33,961 nucleotides of DNA from a virus (lineage: Duplodnaviria; Heunggongvirae; Uroviricota; Caudoviricetes): IMG/VR virus record IMGVR_UViG_2636415959_000001, positions 1 through 33,961 of that record, one strand, 5' to 3'. The position numbers were made by a program, and so were the translations under genes. The notes beneath the pieces were generated by a model. The model made no database searches. It was not told the origin of the DNA and saw only the letters and a list, made by a program, of their open reading frames with translations. Below are positions 1-33,961 of this stretch, one piece after another (position 1 is the first letter of the stretch; every line of letters starts with the position of its first letter).

Positions 1-1314
1 TTAACTTACTGATTTTAATAATCCTCTACTGCTAGTTTGTGGTCTATGGGGCATCAATGGGGCAAAATCACCCAGCTTCTGATTCAGCATTGCGATCTGC
101 TCTGCGTTATTGTCTGCCATCCATGCGCCGTACACATTGAAAACCATTTGCGCACTAGCGTGCCCCATCTGACTGGCTATAAAGCTTGGATTGGCGCCAG
201 CGGCCAGTGACCAGCACGCGTAAGTGTGGCGCGACTGGTAAGCTTTTCGATGCCTGATCCCCGCCTTTTTTAACCCTGCGTCCCACGAGTCACCAAACGA
301 ATCAACCTTGTAGATAACCCCCACATCCTTACTTCGACGGACTATCTTAGGGTTAAAGACAAATGTACAGCTGTGCTGCGTTGTTCGACCATATTCACGC
401 AATTGCACGTTGATGTGATACTGCTGCCCGAGTCTAGTCATTTCCATCTGATTCCTTAACGCATCGATGGCTGGCTGAATGAGGTGTATCACTCTATCCG
501 TACTGGCGTCCGTTTTCGGTAGTGTGAACTCGCCCAGTTTTGTATAATTACGGCGAATTGTTATTGTACCCGCTTCAAGGTCTATATCTTCCCATGCCAG
601 GGAAACCAGTTCTCCGTGACGAACACCTGTGTACACCGCCAGTGACCACATGTTTTTCGTCTGCTGATGCCGGCACGCATCTATCAGACGGATGAATTCA
701 TCACGGCTGAGCGGATCTGGCTCCACCCTGGCCCTTTTTAATGGCTTTATTCCATCAAAGGGATTTGCCTTTATGTACCCATTATCGGCGGCGAACTGGA
801 ACATTCCGGCGATAGTCGTCATGTAGTAATTGACGGTGACCGCGCTCCGGCCCTTAACAGGGATCCTGCCCTTTGCCGCGCACTGATAACCCATCAAAAG
901 CTCTTTCCTGATGTACAGCAACTCTTCTTTCTCAATCGCTGTCACCAGTCGGGTAGCCCCGATCAGCGGTACAACAACTGCCACGACCGACTCGTACCGT
1001 TTGTGCGCGTTCGCGCTGATTTCCATCTTTTTCAGATCCAGCCACTTCTCTTCGAGTTCTTTCACTGTGATTTCTTTCTTGCCCAACCCAAAAATTTTAA
1101 GGTTAGGTGAATCTGGAAACCGTTCAGCATAATCAAAGCTTCCCGTGCGGATGGCAAAGCATACCGACACCCGCAGTTCCCCGGCGATCTTCCTGTTCTT
1201 AGCGGTGTCAGGGACACCGAGGTTTTCCCTGACGCGCTTACCTTTAAAATTAAACCAGATGCGCAGACTGCCACCGTGGTTTTCGACGCCTGTTGGATAT
1301 GTGATTTTATCCAT
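1..1314 (-). CDS. int: Tyrosine-type site-specific integrase (phage integrase)
   Basis: 437-aa ORF; C-terminal catalytic region with conserved R (..TGVRHGELVSL..), H-x-x-R (..RHTYACW..) and terminal Tyr region (..VFNVYGAWM..); N-terminal arm-binding-like domain; stop codon at window position 1-3. Confidence 0.9.
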   Translation of the reverse strand: MDKITYPTGVENHGGSLRIWFNFKGKRVRENLGVPDTAKNRKIAGELRVSVCFAIRTGSFDYAERFPDSPNLKIFGLGKKEITVKELEEKWLDLKKMEISANAHKRYESVVAVVVPLIGATRLVTAIEKEELLYIRKELLMGYQCAAKGRIPVKGRSAVTVNYYMTTIAGMFQFAADNGYIKANPFDGIKPLKRARVEPDPLSRDEFIRLIDACRHQQTKNMWSLAVYTGVRHGELVSLAWEDIDLEAGTITIRRNYTKLGEFTLPKTDASTDRVIHLIQPAIDALRNQMEMTRLGQQYHINVQLREYGRTTQHSCTFVFNPKIVRRSKDVGVIYKVDSFGDSWDAGLKKAGIRHRKAYQSRHTYACWSLAAGANPSFIASQMGHASAQMVFNVYGAWMADNNAEQIAMLNQKLGDFAPLMPHRPQTSSRGLLKSVS

Positions 1315-3527: not shown

Positions 3528-4360
3528 GCTTCCACCTCCACGAAGATCTCTTTCGGATCCTTACGCAGAACGAAGCCACCAAATTCAGGATGTTGCCAGC
3601 GCTTGCGTTTACCGCTTGGGCGAACGGATTCTTCCAGCAGCACCTGAAATGCGTGAATGAACGATTCATGATGTACGCACAGCCCACGAACTCCCGGCAA
3701 CTGTCTGGAGGGCAGGTTTGCGAACTGAACAAGACGACGGCACGAAGGATCGGACAGACTGGTTTCCCATGACACTTTGTGTACCGGAACGAATTCGGCA
3801 TCGGTATTCACGAATTCAGTCGAACTAATGCGCCGTTGTGGTAGAGAGGAAGATACAGGCGAAGCAGCAACCAGGTTGGCGCCACTCACTTCCATTACTG
3901 CTTTCATCGTCGCTGATGCGGTTGCTTCGGCCACAACGCGGGCCAGTGAAAGAATGTCATGGTTCATGCTGATTTCTTGCTGGTGTGATTTAGCTACTGG
4001 CACTTCTTTGCTGTATGTGCCTGTGGTCATGATGGCAGGGAGTACATCCTCACAAACCCAGTCCTGTACGCGTTCAGCCGATGGAAGCTGGCTTCGCAGG
4101 ATAAGGCGGAACAAGTCGGCCTGACCAGCCAGCTGAGTACCGCGCGGTTTTTCACCAAAACCCAATTCTAACGATTCGTTATAATCAAGTTTAATCAACG
4201 CCTTGCAGTGGTCTTTCAGCGCTTTTGCTGGGTTCGTATAACCGAGGGATTTAGCCAGTTCTACAGCGTCAAAGGCTGGTTTTCCCTCATAAAGAATTCC
4301 GCTCATAGAAAAATTGAGTTCTTCTGAGCTAAAGGCCATAAGTTGGTTTTTCATCATCAT
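3524..4360 (-). CDS. BRO-N (KilA-N/Bro N-terminal) domain protein, antirepressor-like
   Basis: 278 aa; N-terminal ..FDAVELAKSLGYTNPAKALKDHC..LFRLILRSQLPSAERVQDWVCEDVLPAI.. fits the BRO-N pattern; C-terminal half unrecognised. Confidence 0.65.
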   Translation of the reverse strand: MMMKNQLMAFSSEELNFSMSGILYEGKPAFDAVELAKSLGYTNPAKALKDHCKALIKLDYNESLELGFGEKPRGTQLAGQADLFRLILRSQLPSAERVQDWVCEDVLPAIMTTGTYSKEVPVAKSHQQEISMNHDILSLARVVAEATASATMKAVMEVSGANLVAASPVSSSLPQRRISSTEFVNTDAEFVPVHKVSWETSLSDPSCRRLVQFANLPSRQLPGVRGLCVHHESFIHAFQVLLEESVRPSGKRKRWQHPEFGGFVLRKDPKEIFVEVEA

Positions 4361-5328: not shown

Positions 5329-5715
5329 TCATACGAAGCGCCTCACAGCTAAAGAAGCGACTACCCGACCATGAATTTTGATATCTTTCAGCTCATCGGT
5401 ATTGAGGGTGAAGGTTTCGTAATGATGGTTGTCCGAAATAATTTTCAATGAACCACAAACTAATGGCTCAACTCTCTTAATAAAAAGGCACGGACGGCCA
5501 AATACATCCATCGTATAAACATAAATGCCAGGGGTTAGCGTGCGGCCACCGCAATCAACGAAAGCCACAACCTCACATGGTTCGATGGTCGGCTGCATTG
5601 AGTCTCCCTCCATCATGCAGCTCTTAACACGGTTACCAAAGTCATTAATGTTGTCAGAGCCGAACAGCATTTGAGGTGTTTTAATTGGCTGATTAATTGC
5701 GATAGCGTTTTGCAT
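5329..5715 (-). CDS. Standalone S24 (LexA/CI/UmuD-type) peptidase-domain protein without HTH
   Basis: 128 aa; GDSMQP serine motif and downstream ..LFIKRVE.. lysine motif parallel the C-terminal domain of the adjacent CI (..GNSMEPVI.. / ..GWKRLKI..); no N-terminal DNA-binding domain; RBS GAGGAA 7 nt upstream. Confidence 0.6.
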   Translation of the reverse strand: MQNAIAINQPIKTPQMLFGSDNINDFGNRVKSCMMEGDSMQPTIEPCEVVAFVDCGGRTLTPGIYVYTMDVFGRPCLFIKRVEPLVCGSLKIISDNHHYETFTLNTDELKDIKIHGRVVASLAVRRFV

Positions 5716-6253: not shown

Positions 6254-6946
6254 TCAGAAGATTGTTGATACCCAAAACAGCCTTCCTAAAACCTCAAGAC
6301 TATCCATGTCTACTTCTTCGTCAGGGTATTCATCAGAGTTATAGCTTCTGATTGTCACCTTGTCTGGCCCAGATCTGTAGAGGATTTTTAACCTTTTCCA
6401 TCCACCTTGGTTGATGCCGTAAATTTTACCATCAACGATACGCTTGTCATGGCAGTTTATAGCAACAGTAGAGCCATCAGCGATCACTGGCTCCATGCTA
6501 TTCCCGTGTGCAGCAAAGCATAGAACGCCATCACCATCACTATTAGCTCCCACCTTTCGCAATGTTGCTTTGGAAAACCTAAGTTTTTTGCCATTGTAAT
6601 CATCATTAAGAGCGCTGCCATCTCCACATGCGAACTCGATATCCTTCAAGTAAGGCACCTCTACCTCATCATCCTCAAGCGGCGTTTGCTTATCCCATGG
6701 ATCTATACCAAACATCCTTTGTTCTGGAGTTTTTGCGGGCCCCATGGTGCCTTCACCAGTGCTTAACCATATTGGATCTACATCCAACGCTTTGGCTATA
6801 TCCACGATTTTTCCGCTGGACTGGGCTTTTCCTGAGGTTAGTTTTTGTATGGCCCCCTGGCTTACCCCAACCCTATGCGCTAATTGACTTTGTGTAGCCC
6901 CGGCATGAGCCATCGCCAGCCTTAGTCTTTCTGCAAGTGTGTTCAT
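6254..6946 (-). CDS. cI: CI-like phage repressor (HTH + S24 peptidase)
   Basis: 230 aa; N-terminal HTH (..QSQLAHRVGVSQGAIQKLTSGK..); C-terminal autocleavage domain (GNSMEP, KRLK); divergent from the cro-like gene. Confidence 0.9.
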   Translation of the reverse strand: MNTLAERLRLAMAHAGATQSQLAHRVGVSQGAIQKLTSGKAQSSGKIVDIAKALDVDPIWLSTGEGTMGPAKTPEQRMFGIDPWDKQTPLEDDEVEVPYLKDIEFACGDGSALNDDYNGKKLRFSKATLRKVGANSDGDGVLCFAAHGNSMEPVIADGSTVAINCHDKRIVDGKIYGINQGGWKRLKILYRSGPDKVTIRSYNSDEYPDEEVDMDSLEVLGRLFWVSTIF

Positions 6947-28976: not shown

Positions 28977-29401
28977 TGGAACTGTGGCTGACGGTGAACG
29001 GTAAACGCACCTGCGCCAGCGCACCGCTGGATCCGCTGACCCGCGCTGTGGTGATTTCCCTGTTTACCTGGCGGCGGGCGGAGCCTGATGACAACGCCGA
29101 CGTCCCGATGGGATGGTGGGGGGATACCTGGCCTGCGGTACAGAATGACCGTTACGGCTCCCGACTGTGGCTGCTTCAGCGCAGCAAACTGACCAATCAG
29201 CTGGTGCAGACGGTAAGGGGGTATATCCGCGAATGCCTGCAATGGATGATTGATGACGGCGTGGTGTCCCGTATTGATCTGGATATCCGCCGTACCGGGA
29301 TTAATGAACTGGGTAACAGTATCACTCTCTGGCGTCGTGACGGACCGGTAATGATTTCTTTTGATGATCTGTGGAGTGCGATAACGCATGGCGGACAGTG
29401 A
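28973..29401 (+). CDS. Baseplate protein (Mu gp46-like, W/gp25 family)
   Basis: 142 aa; position. Confidence 0.6.
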   Translation: MMELWLTVNGKRTCASAPLDPLTRAVVISLFTWRRAEPDDNADVPMGWWGDTWPAVQNDRYGSRLWLLQRSKLTNQLVQTVRGYIRECLQWMIDDGVVSRIDLDIRRTGINELGNSITLWRRDGPVMISFDDLWSAITHGGQ

Positions 29402-31024: not shown

Positions 31025-31825
31025 ATGCATCGTATAGACACGAAAACCGCGCAGAAGGATAAGTTCGGCGCGGGTAAGAACGGTTTTACCCGTGGTAATC
31101 CCCAGACTGGTACGCCTGCCACCGATCTGGATGATGACTACTTTGACATGTTGCAGGAGGAGCTTTGCAGCGTTGTGGAGGCATCCGGTGCCAGCCTGGA
31201 GAAGGGGCGGCATGACCAGTTGCTTACCGCACTTCGCGCACTGCTGTTAAGCCGCAATAATCCGTTTGGTGATATCAAATCGGACGGCACTGTGCAAACG
31301 GCTCTCGAAAACCTTGGTTTGGGAGAAGGTTCAGCATTACCGGTTGGTGTGCCTGTTCCGTGGCCTTCAGCTACACCACCGACAGGCTGGTTGAAATGCA
31401 ATGGTGCAGCTTTTTCTGCTGAAGAATACCCGGAACTGGCAAAGGCTTACCCGACAAATAAATTGCCTGATTTACGCGGTGAGTTTATTCGTGGCTGGGA
31501 TGATGGACGCGGTGTGGATACGGGGAGGGCAATATTATCATCTCAGGGCGATGCCATACGTAATATCTATGGTGAGTTCAAGACTGTAAACGCCGAAAAT
31601 TATTCAATATGGGAATCAGTAGACTCTTTTAAGGGGGCAGTGGTGCCTTTGAACCCCTCAACGGACAATAGTTATTTCTCCATAATCAATAGTATGTTGA
31701 CACAAAGAACAGATGGCTCTGTTTACCCAACAGTGATTGGCCTTGATGCTTCAAGAATTGTTCCAACTGCAAACGAAAACCGTCCACGAAATATTGCATT
31801 TAACTTTATCGTGAGGGCTGCATAA
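31025..31825 (+). CDS. Tail fibre protein with tail-collar domain
   Basis: 266 aa; ..[49 protein letters not shown].. fits the phage tail-collar motif; C-terminal part AT-rich. Confidence 0.75.
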
Positions 31826-32427
31826 TGGATAACGCTGTATTAAATAGCGAGCTTATTGCCACGAAGGCGGGGAATATTACCGTCTATAGCTATGATGGTG
31901 AAACTCGGGAATATATTTCCACTTCAAATGAATATCTTGCCGTTGGCGTCGGTATCCCGGCATGTTCTTGTTTAGATGCACCAGTTACACATAAAGCTGG
32001 TTATGCAATCTGCCGTTCTGCAGATTTTAACTCATGGGAATATGTGCCAGACCATCGCGGTGAAATCATCTATAGCACCGAAACAGGAGAATCGAAAGAA
32101 ATCACAGCTCTGGGTGATTACCCTGAAAATACAACCACTATCGCCCCGTTAATGCCATATGATAAATGGGATGGTGAGAAATGGGTGACAGATACTGAGG
32201 CACAGCATAGTGCCGCAGTAGACGCGGCAGAAGCACAGCGCCAGTCACTGATTGATGCAGCAATGGCTTCCATTAGTCTGATTCAGCTGAAATTACAGGC
32301 CGGACGTAAACTGACGCAGGCAGAAACAACCAGACTTAACGCCGTGCTGGATTACATTGACGCGGTGACGGCAACAGATACCAGCACCGCGCCGGATGTC
32401 ATCTGGCCTGAACTGCCGGAGGCGTAG
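31825..32427 (+). CDS. Tail fibre assembly protein (Tfa)
   Basis: 200 aa directly after the tail fibre (ATGA overlap); typical Tfa composition. Confidence 0.7.
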   Translation: MDNAVLNSELIATKAGNITVYSYDGETREYISTSNEYLAVGVGIPACSCLDAPVTHKAGYAICRSADFNSWEYVPDHRGEIIYSTETGESKEITALGDYPENTTTIAPLMPYDKWDGEKWVTDTEAQHSAAVDAAEAQRQSLIDAAMASISLIQLKLQAGRKLTQAETTRLNAVLDYIDAVTATDTSTAPDVIWPELPEA

Positions 32428-32818
32428 GCCATTCAATATCGAGTGCTGTTGAAGTATTAATACGCATCAATAGCACTCGATATTCTTTCCATGCCAGTAA
32501 CAGTTTCGTTTCATCATCTGTTGCCATACCTAAATCAACCGCATCCTGAAGCGGAGCTATTACATTCGTTGCCTCTGCTATCAGTGCAGATTTCTTTTCA
32601 TCATTTATTAAGGCTAATTGTTCTGGTGTTGGAGAAGGACGGTCAACAATGACAGGATGACCGTTCTCACCACAGGTAATCATTTTTGTTACACTCTGTG
32701 CATTAATCAGTGTTTTCCACTCTGATTCCGAGATTTCCACTGCATCATCAGGAATATTGGTGCCGTGAAATTCAGTCGAATAAAATCCGTTTGTCGATGC
32801 AGAATAAAAATATGACAT
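32399..32818 (-). CDS. Tail fibre assembly protein, second copy in inverted orientation
   Basis: 139 aa from ATG 32818 (MSYFYSASTNGFYSTEF.., a typical Tfa N-terminus); convergent with the plus-strand Tfa. Confidence 0.65.
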   Translation of the reverse strand: MSYFYSASTNGFYSTEFHGTNIPDDAVEISESEWKTLINAQSVTKMITCGENGHPVIVDRPSPTPEQLALINDEKKSALIAEATNVIAPLQDAVDLGMATDDETKLLLAWKEYRVLLMRINTSTALDIEWPTPPAVQAR

Positions 32819-32822
32819 TTCG

Positions 32823-33221
32823 TTAATATCCCATTGCAATGTAATACGCATCAGCAGATGAACCATATCCTGAACCGGGCGACACTGTAATATTAAATCC
32901 AGTGTTCTGGACATTTGTCGCCGATACAGTCGGCTGCCCTGACGCGCCAGTAACGTTCAATGTAACTGTGACAGCAAGGACTCTTGAGAATGTCATCGGG
33001 AACCTTATCTCGTATGTTGAAGAAACATTCGGGGAGCCATTCAACTGACCGCACTGTAAAATTAAACCAGACGGAAATTTTTGCGCAGCAGCCGTTGCGG
33101 TATTACTTGACGCGAACAGGCTCATATCAGGTATCTGATTCGCCCCTGTACCTACATTCCTTTTAGCTGCTTCTCCCAAACCAACGTTTACGAAAATAAA
33201 AATCCGCCACAGCGTAATCAA
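32823..33221 (-). other. Inverted tail-fibre C-terminal (receptor-binding-like) coding segment lacking its own N-terminal part
   Basis: Minus-strand ORF ending 4 nt before the inverted Tfa; track start is a non-ATG codon inside the dinI terminator; first in-frame ATG at 33125 has no clear RBS. Confidence 0.45.
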
Positions 33222-33240
33222 AACGTAACAGTGGCGGATA
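33191..33240 (-). terminator. Intrinsic terminator downstream of the dinI-like gene
   Basis: ATCCGCCAC / GTGGCGGAT stem (33202-33210 / 33231-33239), large loop, followed on the minus strand by TTTTTATTTT. Confidence 0.5.
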
Positions 33241-33250
33241 TTGAAAAACT

Positions 33251-33493
33251 TTACTCACTCACTAACCAAAATTCAGCCTCTTCAAACATTTCCTGGACTA
33301 CTGCACTGATCCGTTCCTTCTCGTGCTTGCTGGCGTCAGTGTTGATCGCCGGTAGTGTCATCATCGGTTTAACCCGAACATCAGCGTCAGGGAAAATCCG
33401 GTGAACCCTCTTGGTCAATTCGCCCAGAATGATATCTTTTGCACCGGGAAGACCATCAAAATTCCTTTTGTCATAAACGAGTTCCACGAACAT
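33251..33493 (-). CDS. dinI: DinI-family protein
   Basis: 80 aa; ..FPDADVRV.. and acidic C-terminus ..EEAEFWLVSE parallel E. coli DinI (..DDWFVSE) as recalled; LexA box in its promoter. Confidence 0.8.
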   Translation of the reverse strand: MFVELVYDKRNFDGLPGAKDIILGELTKRVHRIFPDADVRVKPMMTLPAINTDASKHEKERISAVVQEMFEEAEFWLVSE

Positions 33494-33508
33494 TGCTCAT
33501 TGCCTCTT

Positions 33509-33528
33509 TGCTGGATGGATATACAGTA
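33509..33528. promoter_or_regulatory. LexA (SOS) box in the divergent dinI-like / umuD'-like promoter region
   Basis: Minus-strand reading TACTGTATATCCATCCAGCA (CTGT-N8-CCAG), very close to the E. coli dinI box as I recall it; lies between -35 TTGCTG and -10 TATACT (plus strand) and directly downstream of -10 TATAAA (minus strand). Confidence 0.6.
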
Positions 33529-33571
33529 TTTATACTGTGTTTTTATCCGGTATTCAAGAGAGGGCGTAAAC

Positions 33572-33961
33572 ATGGGCTTTCCTTCACCTGCTGCAGATTA
33601 TGTTGAAACACGAATCTCCCTCGATCAGCAGTTAATCAGCCAGCCCGCAGCGACTTATTTCATGCGTGCATCGCGTTCACATTTCAGGGAAGGGATAATT
33701 CAGGGGGCGCTGCTTGTTGTTGATGCCTCACTTTCAGCCTGTGATGGCTCGCTGCTGATCTGCGCGATAGACGGAGAATTTAGGATCAAGCGATATCGGA
33801 CACATCCTCAACCCCACCTCGTTAATCTGGAGAACGGGAGAAAGGAGGCGCTGCCAGTAGATGATGGCGGTTACAGTTCTGCACCCGCTGTATTTGGGGT
33901 GCTTACTTACATCATCAATGACGCCAGGAATGCAGAGTTTGATGATTGCCCGGTGATGTGA
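33572..33961 (+). CDS. UmuD'-like protein (S24-family fold, N-terminally pre-truncated, catalytic Ser not conserved)
   Basis: 129 aa from ATG 33572 (RBS GAGAGGG); starts MGFPSPAADYVE.., aligning to E. coli UmuD from Gly25 (..CGFPSPAADYVEQ..); GDSM position reads RSHF; Lys of ..EFRIKR.. retained; stop is the last codon of the window. Confidence 0.75.
   Translation: MGFPSPAADYVETRISLDQQLISQPAATYFMRASRSHFREGIIQGALLVVDASLSACDGSLLICAIDGEFRIKRYRTHPQPHLVNLENGRKEALPVDDGGYSSAPAVFGVLTYIINDARNAEFDDCPVM

Follow-up and report, generated by a model that had tools for sequence, protein, structure and literature searches.

A dinI-like gene on the minus strand and a umuD′-like gene on the plus strand diverge at the right-hand edge of the window, by which we mean the whole 33,961-nucleotide stretch of viral DNA analysed here, and the question raised by this locus is whether the two genes form an SOS cassette governed from a single LexA operator, with a umuC-like partner lying beyond the last letter. 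We find that the SOS cassette is a real and well supported observation, and we think it very probable that a temperate prophage, probably of Citrobacter, carries here, at its tail-fibre end, a two-gene accessory module that LexA represses and that works in the manner set out below. The arrangement was already known from the earlier annotation of phage phiKO2, and by sequence comparison the window copy is an ordinary one.

Identity of the two genes

The coordinates and gene calls of the initial annotation proved correct: genes of the DinI and HumD families diverge across the 78-bp spacer that it had described (Table 1), the window ends at the humD stop codon as it had said, and the Pfam DinI and NCBIfam HumD matches agree with its reading of a divergent DinI-like and UmuD′-like pair.

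Table 1. Positions in the window of the cassette genes and of their observed or predicted regulatory features
Feature	Position	Strand	Description
Probable intrinsic terminator of the dinI-like gene	33192-33239	minus	Found by RNA folding
dinI-like gene	33251-33493	minus	80 aa; coordinates include the stop codon
Spacer between the dinI-like and humD genes	33494-33571		78 bp
Putative humD promoter	33508-33536	plus	TTGCTG (33508-33513), 17 nt, TATACT (33531-33536); predicted from sequence
LexA box 1	33509-33528	no strand	TGCTGGATGGATATACAGTA; strong predicted operator, CTG and CAG both kept
Putative dinI-like promoter	33529-33557	minus	TTGAAT (33557-33552), 17 nt, TATAAA (33534-33529); predicted from sequence
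LexA box 2	33533-33552	no strand	TACTGTGTTTTTATCCGGTA; degenerate, CGG for CAG
humD gene	33572-33961	plus	129 aa plus stop; UmuD′ homologue without the cleavable N-terminal tail

The minus-strand product matches Pfam DinI PF06183 above its gathering score (E = 1.7e-18; 67.1 bits, cutoff 24.2) and PHROG 189 ("RecA filament binding protein DinI"), and it aligns to the E. coli DinI structure 1GHH through to the acidic C-terminal helix typical of the family, where EEAEFWLVSE in the window stands opposite ESADDWFVSE. Identity with the host dinI orthologue was rejected, because the protein scores only 43.3 bits against the chromosomal DinI equivalog NF007893 (cutoff 111); on these scores it is a phage-type DinI-like protein, and gp22 of phiKO2 shares 78% identity with it (tblastn). 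Downstream of the gene, folding of the RNA yields the probable terminator, in which a G+C-rich stem of 9 bp (33231-33239 paired with 33202-33210) is followed by UUUUUAUUUU; the minimum free energy of the fold is -16.4 kcal/mol (z = -2.46 versus shuffles), and the phiKO2 record annotates a terminator in the same relative place. A consensus terminator scan of 33100-33961 passed no candidate, and this one was missed by it because its loop is long.

The plus-strand product matches the NCBIfam HumD equivalog NF051876 over its full length (residues 1-129 of 129; 219.6 bits, cutoff 120), and is 72% identical to HumD of phage P1 and 68-70% identical to phiKO2 gp23. Its N-terminus, M-GFPSPAADYVE, starts exactly at the point of cleavage of UmuD between Cys24 and Gly25: residue 2 aligns with residue 1 of UmuD′ (1UMU) and with residue 25 of full-length UmuD (8GMT_B), and the alignment to UmuD opens with a gap of 23 residues. 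HumD is translated, that is, in the UmuD′ form and without a cleavable tail, and it has been termed an already activated UmuD (PMC7092418). Both cassette genes are under purifying selection; dN/dS against relatives is 0.03-0.19 across the pair, a range that the dinI-like gene spans, and 0.04-0.13 for humD, in which the selection is strong over the whole length.

A second protein consisting of an S24 domain only (5329-5715) was considered as a possible second UmuD′ and set aside, having no similarity to HumD. An inverted repeat (33327-33346 and 33911-33930) lies within the two coding regions and was taken as chance.

LexA boxes and promoters in the spacer

Candidate LexA sites were scored with a heterology-index (HI) matrix built from the literature on 27 E. 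coli operators, and absolute HI values are approximate. This scoring bore out the good LexA box that the initial annotation had placed in the spacer: box 1 is the best LexA-like site of the 34-kb window, with a symmetrised HI of 4.5 (training range 2.1-11.1, median 6.4), a score reached by none of 1000 windows simulated with a first-order Markov model. As a check independent of this matrix, we counted matches to TACTG-N10-CAGTA with at most one mismatch, the LexA consensus being quoted as TACTG(TA)5CAGTA (PMC6590174), and found three in the window against 0.5 expected, two of them adjacent in the cassette spacer. The third (29302-29321), a match within coding DNA whose CTG is broken and which does not rank with the 15 best HI sites, was rejected.

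Box 1 has what is expected of an SOS operator, a near-consensus CTG-N10-CAG overlapping both candidate promoters, and also the constancy expected of an operator of the LexA regulon, in that 11 orthologous spacers from five genera, and phiKO2, show no variation at CTG, at CAG or in the flanking TATACAGTA; the LexA site of phiKO2 itself occupies the same position. Conservation extends over the whole spacer and not over the humD side alone; all 78 positions are identical to those of E. coli Nissle, despite a synonymous divergence of 0.42-0.48 in the flanking genes.

The claim that one operator serves both genes holds in part. A LexA operator region is indeed shared, but the description was incomplete, since a degenerate second box lies 4 bp to the right of the first. 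Box 2, with one mismatch to TACTG-N10-CAGTA, is the second-best LexA-like site of the window (HI 8.3; sites this good are expected about 0.013 times per 34 kb), and the HI scan of the window gave no LexA-like site outside the cassette spacer. Because CTG-N10-CAG is intact at box 2 in the Kluyvera orthologues (L018, L019 and L021; HI 3.4-4.3) and in Klebsiella spallanzanii (L033), the sequences point to two adjacent operators, not one, as the ancestral design. The window is alone among the 11 orthologues in carrying G at position 2 of box 1, and because of this, and of the loss of the critical A of CAG in box 2, the cassette may be less tightly repressed here than in the relatives.

Neither promoter passed a consensus scan of 33100-33961: the putative humD promoter, with 8 of 12 consensus matches, falls under the threshold, and TATAAA on the dinI-like side breaks the rule that a -10 hexamer should end in T. 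Both nevertheless have counterparts in phiKO2, the regulatory coordinates of whose record fit its sequence only after a shift of 18 bp; with this correction the humD -10 is that of phiKO2 gene 23, and the dinI-like promoter corresponds to TTGACA/TATAAA of gene 22. The two candidate -10 hexamers overlap, as had been claimed and as is annotated for phiKO2. Transcription is predicted to begin near 33543 on the plus strand and near 33522 on the minus strand. Box 1 had been described as lying between the -35 and -10 of the plus-strand promoter and abutting the minus-strand -10; the second part stands, whereas on the plus strand the box overlaps the -35 and so is not strictly between the hexamers.

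A probable orphan humD and its relatives

The suggestion that a umuC-like partner may follow humD was not borne out. In eight contigs encoding the identical 129-aa HumD no IMS domain is encoded within 8 kb downstream, where ynaM, an isochorismatase fragment, a resolvase-type gene, yciI and tonB are found instead. A UmuC query (tblastn) had no match in the window, in any of 38 HumD-family loci from different species or in any phage locus, while the same search found UmuC beside a true umuD in two outgroup loci (L057 and L060). Two open reading frames examined as UmuC candidates encode an MFS transporter (433 aa, in L023) and LepA (622 aa, in L026). In none of the relatives is an IMS gene directly downstream, as it would be in a Pol V operon of the umuDC or impCAB type. 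The initial annotation had held that lack of a following Y-family polymerase gene would refute an SOS cassette; it does not, because the orphan state, with no cognate umuC in the operon, is a defining trait of HumD, and is seen in the relatives of the window humD, at whose stop codon the window DNA ends.

What does accompany humD, essentially universally, is a LexA box. A strong one (HI of 6.9 or less) is present in the promoter at all 38 HumD-family loci; it stands 14-45 bp ahead of humD or, failing that, upstream of a small preceding gene, here called gene X.

Searched for near identity, the phage collection yielded only a 94-bp match, to the tail-fibre DNA of SfI, SfII and SfIV, and phage relatives of the cassette in that collection were found at the protein level only. 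The closest in design is phiKO2 (AY374448), whose genes 22 (DinI-like) and 23 (UmuD-like) are an orthologous pair in the same orientation and in the same place after the tail-fibre genes, with the same overlapping -10 hexamers (TATAAA/TATACT), which its record annotates together with the LexA site. Sizes are close to those of the window: 80 aa in both for the DinI-like protein, 127 against 129 aa for HumD, 77 against 78 bp for the spacer, and 44 against 43 bp from LexA box to humD start. Box 1 of phiKO2 (TACTGTATGCATATACAGTA) is nearer to consensus than ours, and its second box is destroyed in the distal half, whereas the second box of the window lacks just one key base; phiKO2 is also a linear plasmid prophage, in contrast to the integrated prophage with a Mu-like tail seen here.

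P1 HumD resembles the window protein in its length of 129 aa, its pre-cleaved N-terminus and the absence of a umuC partner. The P1 gene has a LexA box 19 bp upstream and, according to its annotation, shares this site with a divergent gene upstream, but that gene is lxr (190 aa) and not a dinI homologue; the P1 spacer is also longer (174 bp), and the annotated P1 humD promoter is far upstream. HK140 has the same order as the window, of tail fibre, DinI (minus) and HumD-like (plus), at a prophage end beside attP and int, but differs in having, between the operator region and humD, gene X (79 aa; PHROG 3893), which Citrobacter portucalensis and C. braakii also have and the window lacks. As the pair, the LexA site and the overlapping -10 hexamers were annotated in phiKO2, and HumD was characterised in P1, the discovery value of the window copy is small.

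Proposed working of the cassette and its alternatives

We propose that in an undamaged lysogen host LexA would occupy box 1 and perhaps, weakly or cooperatively, box 2. The two divergent promoters would overlap fully within the 78 bp, each box taking in the start region of one promoter together with the other's -35 and spacer, and because each box would thereby cover parts of both promoters, LexA would close both genes. DNA damage would activate RecA, leading to LexA self-cleavage and the opening of both promoters. By analogy with E. coli DinI, the DinI-like protein would then bind RecA filaments and damp their co-protease activity, including UmuD cleavage, and HumD, needing no RecA-mediated cleavage because it is made in the UmuD′ form, would dimerise and recruit host UmuC to give a Pol V-like translesion polymerase, with no phage umuC involved. 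This partnership with host UmuC has been reported for P1 HumD only, and is extended to the window protein by analogy.

Two further ideas could be built upon this scheme, although we find them unlikely: that the cassette is a phage takeover of translesion synthesis, in which the DinI-like protein damps the UmuD-cleavage checkpoint and HumD bypasses it; and that the fully overlapping promoters, with their opposed -10 hexamers and neighbouring LexA operators, fire one side at a time, giving either anti- or pro-mutagenic expression from cell to cell. Were such either/or firing to occur, the decay of box 2 in the Citrobacter and E. coli copies would shift the balance.

HumD might instead be mainly a decoy or modulator. 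The phage would then gain from slower replication or a changed SOS checkpoint, brought about, for example, by titration of the host's UmuC, UmuD, beta clamp or RecA filaments. Such a role would suit a HumD without a cognate UmuC, and also the variation of its Ser60-equivalent catalytic residue (S in the window and P1, T in phiKO2 and HK639), as only binding surfaces would need to be kept; products of the umuD gene are known to act on Pol III, and native expression in the P1 HumD study was reportedly poor. We consider it unlikely all the same, since P1 HumD, to which the window protein is so similar, reportedly restored mutagenesis and bound both UmuC and RecA filaments in the 1999 work of McLenigan and co-workers, and since the full HumD length is retained under strong purifying selection.

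Distinctly unlikely, in our view, is that LexA controls humD only, the dinI-like gene being not effectively blocked or answering to another regulator, so that there is no co-regulation. The position of the real dinI promoter is uncertain, given the -10 without its conserved final T; box 2, in the spacer of that promoter, is degenerate here; and humD elsewhere has a box of its own without any dinI, the identical HumD occurring also behind a different promoter that bears TACTGTATATAAAAACAGTG. Yet box 1, directly downstream of the proposed dinI-like -10, extends over the start region of that promoter; LexA represses other SOS genes from such a position (PMC8072944), and the prophage dinI homologues tested, those of Salmonella, are LexA-controlled and damage-induced (PMC3121763; PMC8072944). 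The conservation of the entire spacer, dinI side included, and the placing of both promoters around one site by the phiKO2 authors, argue likewise for joint control.

That the dinI-like gene is the first of a prophage-induction module, and that the cassette serves as a lytic switch, appears very improbable. In Gifsy-1, -2 and -3 a LexA box is followed by a dinI homologue and then an antirepressor, and Tum of phage 186 is an antirepressor-DinI fusion (PMC3121763). The cassette is like the damage-induced Gifsy operons in having a LexA box directly ahead of a prophage dinI homologue, but it has no antirepressor or irsA after the dinI-like gene, and its partner is the divergent humD. Within about 12 bp of the dinI-like gene comes the stem-loop and U-run of the terminator, and past this the right arm of an invertible tail-fibre segment; the sole downstream minus-strand ORF of at least 30 aa (33163-33258; 31 aa) overlaps both the end of dinI and the terminator. 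Deletion of the dinI homologue from Gifsy prophages gave no induction phenotype (PMC3121763), a result that we counted against our own preferred explanation. A cleavable CI-type repressor (HTH plus S24 self-cleaving domain; 6254-6946) already explains RecA-dependent induction of the window prophage, and no LexA-like site in the window lies outside the cassette.

That the cassette instead forms the 5′ portion of a full operon of the umuDC/impCAB type, its umuC beyond the window edge, is suggested by a window ending exactly at the humD stop, by the umuC genes following true umuD in the outgroup loci and by impCAB, which joins a DinI homologue with umuD and umuC homologues, but is extremely improbable given the loci without umuC described above, the genes that do follow humD in phages (attP and int in HK140; a terminator and par genes in N15 and phiKO2) and a HumD equivalog defined by the missing tail, which matters only for regulated Pol V assembly. 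The LexA-repressed accessory module that we favour does share with umuDC, mucAB and impCAB both LexA repression and an accessory subunit of the UmuD fold, and impCAB pairs the DinI homologue ImpC with a UmuD homologue. The cassette differs from these operons in having no UmuC, MucB or ImpB gene, in making its accessory subunit already processed, and in transcribing its dinI-like gene divergently, the DinI homologue of the impCAB type being in the same operon.

For annotation, a UmuD′-sized S24 protein at a prophage end would thus be better read as an orphan HumD, borrowing host UmuC, than as a truncated umuDC. Such cassettes are common and therefore may contribute to damage-induced mutagenesis in lysogens: among 5426 complete E. 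coli genomes, 120 gave matches, of which 23 covered at least 80% of the query, and the index of the assembly collection lists the identical HumD in 328 blocks. Both genes are already named by PGAP in E. coli and Citrobacter genomes.

The divergent DinI-like/humD cassette and its LexA boxes

The terminal 771 bases of the window are occupied by two back-to-back ORFs with 78 bp of intervening DNA; ORFs and family matches together bear out the divergent dinI-like/umuD'-like pair that the initial annotation placed here. The minus-strand protein has a Pfam DinI match in the domain search (E = 1.7e-18), is assigned to PHROG 189 ('RecA filament binding protein DinI') and aligns with the solved structure of E. 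coli DinI, acidic C-terminal helix included; at 43 bits it falls well under the chromosomal DinI equivalog cutoff of 111, which makes it a DinI-like protein of the phage type. Against the NCBI HumD equivalog (cutoff 120) the plus-strand protein reaches 219.6 bits. Its residue 2 aligns with residue 1 of crystallised UmuD' and residue 25 of full-length UmuD and, judged from this alignment, HumD is made directly in the form that UmuD attains only through RecA-mediated cleavage. Strong purifying selection acts on both genes (dN/dS 0.03-0.19).

Features of the window and of comparison loci (L numbers denote comparison loci or contigs)
Feature	Position	Strand	Remarks
Integrase	1-1314		
S24-only protein	5329-5715	minus	128 aa; GDSM serine motif; near CI-type repressor gene
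CI-type repressor	6254-6946		HTH + S24 domains
Inverted repeat TCGAAAACCTTGGTTTGGGAGAAG	31305-31328 / 33170-33193		24 nt; arms 92% complementary
Alternative fibre tip	32823-33221	minus	
Stem-loop then U-run	33192-33239	minus	probable terminator of dinI-like transcript
DinI-like ORF	33251-33493	minus	80 aa
LexA box 1, TGCTGGATGGATATACAGTA	33509-33528		
LexA box 2, TACTGTGTTTTTATCCGGTA	33533-33552		degenerate
Putative humD promoter, sigma-70-like	-35 TTGCTG 33508-33513; -10 TATACT 33531-33536	plus	17-nt spacer
Putative dinI-like promoter, sigma-70-like	-35 TTGAAT 33557-33552; -10 TATAAA 33534-33529	minus	17-nt spacer
HumD ORF	33572-33961	plus	129 aa
YnaM/YnfT-family gene	L001 6894-7010; L004, L006 8438-8554	opposite to humD	38 aa
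HumD module switching	L003-L010 7860-8000; L015, L017 ~3680-4000; L081 1262-1501		

Box 1 retains both CTG and CAG and has four mismatches to the LexA consensus TACTG(TA)5CAGTA, as quoted in PMC6590174. The heterology index (HI; lower is better) was computed with a home-built matrix of 27 E. coli operators from the literature rather than a published one, so that absolute values are approximate; with this matrix, symmetrised, box 1 scores 4.5, the training operators ranging from 2.1 to 11.1 (median 6.4). It ranks first among all sites on both strands of the 33,961 bases and was equalled in 0/1000 first-order-Markov simulations of the window, which upholds its earlier designation as a good LexA box. 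As a check independent of this matrix, the pattern TACTG-N10-CAGTA with at most one mismatch was found three times against 0.5 expected, a number reached by no shuffle, and two of the three matches stand side by side in the dinI/humD spacer.

The second of these is box 2, four bases to the right of box 1. The proposal of a single shared box thus holds for box 1 and overlooked this degenerate neighbour, which at HI 8.3 ranks second in the window, where about 0.013 such sites are expected, and departs from a good operator mainly in CAG having become CGG. At the same position three Kluyvera loci have TACTGTGTTT(A/T)TATCCAGTA (HI 3.4-4.3) and Klebsiella spallanzanii also has CTG-N10-CAG, while in phage phiKO2 the left half alone remains. 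Because box 2 is intact in Kluyvera and K. spallanzanii, the ancestral cassette appears to have had two adjacent LexA operators, of which the second appears to have decayed in the window and in its Citrobacter and E. coli relatives.

The spacer is identical to that of E. coli Nissle 1917 despite a synonymous divergence of 0.42-0.48 in both genes, and CTG (spacer bases 18-20) and the block TATACAGTAT.TATACTGT are among the columns conserved without exception in an alignment of 11 orthologous spacers (Citrobacter, Escherichia, Kluyvera, Klebsiella and phiKO2).

Proposed regulation in the lysogen

The -10 hexamers of the two inferred promoters overlap on opposite strands, as had been suggested. 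Box 1 spans the -35 and spacer of the inferred humD promoter plus the start region of its dinI-like counterpart; for box 2 the arrangement is mirrored, the -35 and spacer of the dinI-like promoter being covered together with the humD start region. Neither promoter reaches the thresholds of a consensus promoter scan. The predicted leaders are about 29 nt for both genes, with AGAGG-type ribosome-binding sites.

Strong sequence and comparative evidence suggests that in the lysogen LexA most likely represses both promoters, although it is possible that just one of the two genes is so controlled; related prophage dinI genes are experimentally under LexA control (PMC3121763; PMC8072944). Damage-activated RecA would then provoke LexA self-cleavage and expression of both genes. 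By analogy with E. coli DinI and P1 HumD, the DinI-like protein would bind RecA filaments and moderate their co-protease activity, and HumD, needing no processing, would join host UmuC; a non-polymerase role for HumD is also possible. That the dinI-like gene instead heads a Gifsy-type antirepressor operon is unlikely, since no real ORF lies downstream of it, the probable terminator follows it and the prophage encodes a cleavable CI-type repressor, through which induction presumably proceeds. Boxes 1 and 2 excepted, the window holds no site better than HI 12.6, and nothing in the whole-window LexA scan suggests a LexA-controlled antirepressor.

The promoter/LexA layout proposed here is the one described in the phiKO2 record. 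In that record (AY374448, L012; 1955-2002) the lexA site, the two -10s and the gene 22 -35 fit sensible motifs only after an 18-bp left shift, reading TACTGTATGCATATACAGTAT, TATAAA, TATACT and TTGACA; the gene 23 -35 signal is seemingly misplaced by about 100 bp. The initial annotation placed the cassette correctly and its main interpretation was right; it re-describes a known module, one that the records of phiKO2, P1 and HK140 already annotate and that PGAP now names automatically. This analysis adds the decayed second operator, the presence of a LexA box at every HumD locus, the existence of three alternative upstream modules, and evidence that refutes the expected umuC.

A probable orphan humD and its alternative upstream modules

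Since the window ends at the humD stop codon, the umuC-like partner that had been suggested might follow 33961 was sought in relatives, and there the expectation failed. Eight contigs with exactly the same HumD continue into ynaM, an isochorismatase-family fragment, a resolvase-type gene, yciI, tonB, yciA, yciB, yciC and ompW. An IMS-family gene lies near humD in 0/38 family loci and in none of the E. coli or phage loci; what comes after humD is attP and int in HK140, a terminator plus partition genes in N15 and phiKO2, and phd-doc in P1. A UmuC query found its target in just two loci, both of them outgroups that carry genuine umuD genes. Orphan status is a defining property of HumD (PMC7092418), and a umuC hidden past the window edge is very unlikely. 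Two long ORFs downstream of humD, checked as UmuC candidates, were identified as an MFS transporter and LepA.

Scanning one genome per species gave 38 full-length HumD-family loci. In 24 a LexA box (HI 1.1-5.8) lies 14-45 bp upstream of humD; in the other 14 a 79-aa gene X (PHROG 3893, starting MPRRSDIE..., with no Pfam match) abuts humD and is in every case preceded by a LexA box (HI 1.0-6.9). Identical HumD is also encoded downstream of an unrelated region that lacks dinI and carries TACTGTATATAAAAACAGTG, nearly the umuDC operator. With a box at all 38 loci and in this dinI-less region, LexA control, as judged from sequence, is a constant of humD regardless of upstream module. The same protein is joined, exactly at its start codon, to divergent dinI with two boxes, to the umuDC-like box without dinI, or to dinI, boxes and then gene X.

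Prophage context and mosaicism

The window looks like an entire prophage cut at gene boundaries: the CI-type repressor gene is followed by replication and Q-antiterminator genes, structural genes, tail-fibre and tail-fibre-assembly genes and then the cassette. No similarity was detected between the S24-only protein and HumD. The host is probably Citrobacter, because the nearest species-level HumD matches (93-95% identical) lie in C. meridianamericanus, C. portucalensis, C. freundii and C. braakii. The top match in complete E. coli genomes (91% DNA identity) is Nissle 1917, where PGAP names the products 'DinI-like family protein' and 'HumD family translesion DNA polymerase'.

A contig with different tail genes (L005, 7607-8390) has in common with the window only the final 784 bp (33178-33961), at 99.9% identity. 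The cassette behaves as a mosaic module swapped between prophages at the same chromosomal site near yciI-tonB. The shared stretch begins inside the right inverted-repeat arm. This repeat, which resembles hix/gix crossover sites, flanks two opposed tail-fibre-assembly genes and the alternative fibre tip; 31305-33193 is a predicted invertible tail-fibre segment. The window contains no invertase gene; genomic contexts of identical HumD have a 182-aa Resolvase+HTH_7 gene about 1 kb past humD, so that the SOS cassette apparently separates the segment from its putative invertase.

In several E. coli and Citrobacter contexts the YnaM/YnfT-family gene lies within about 50 bp after humD and is followed by an isochorismatase-family (yecD-like) fragment. 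Because in E. coli Nissle the prophage adjoins an intact yecD, this suggests that the fragment is an attachment-site piece carried along.
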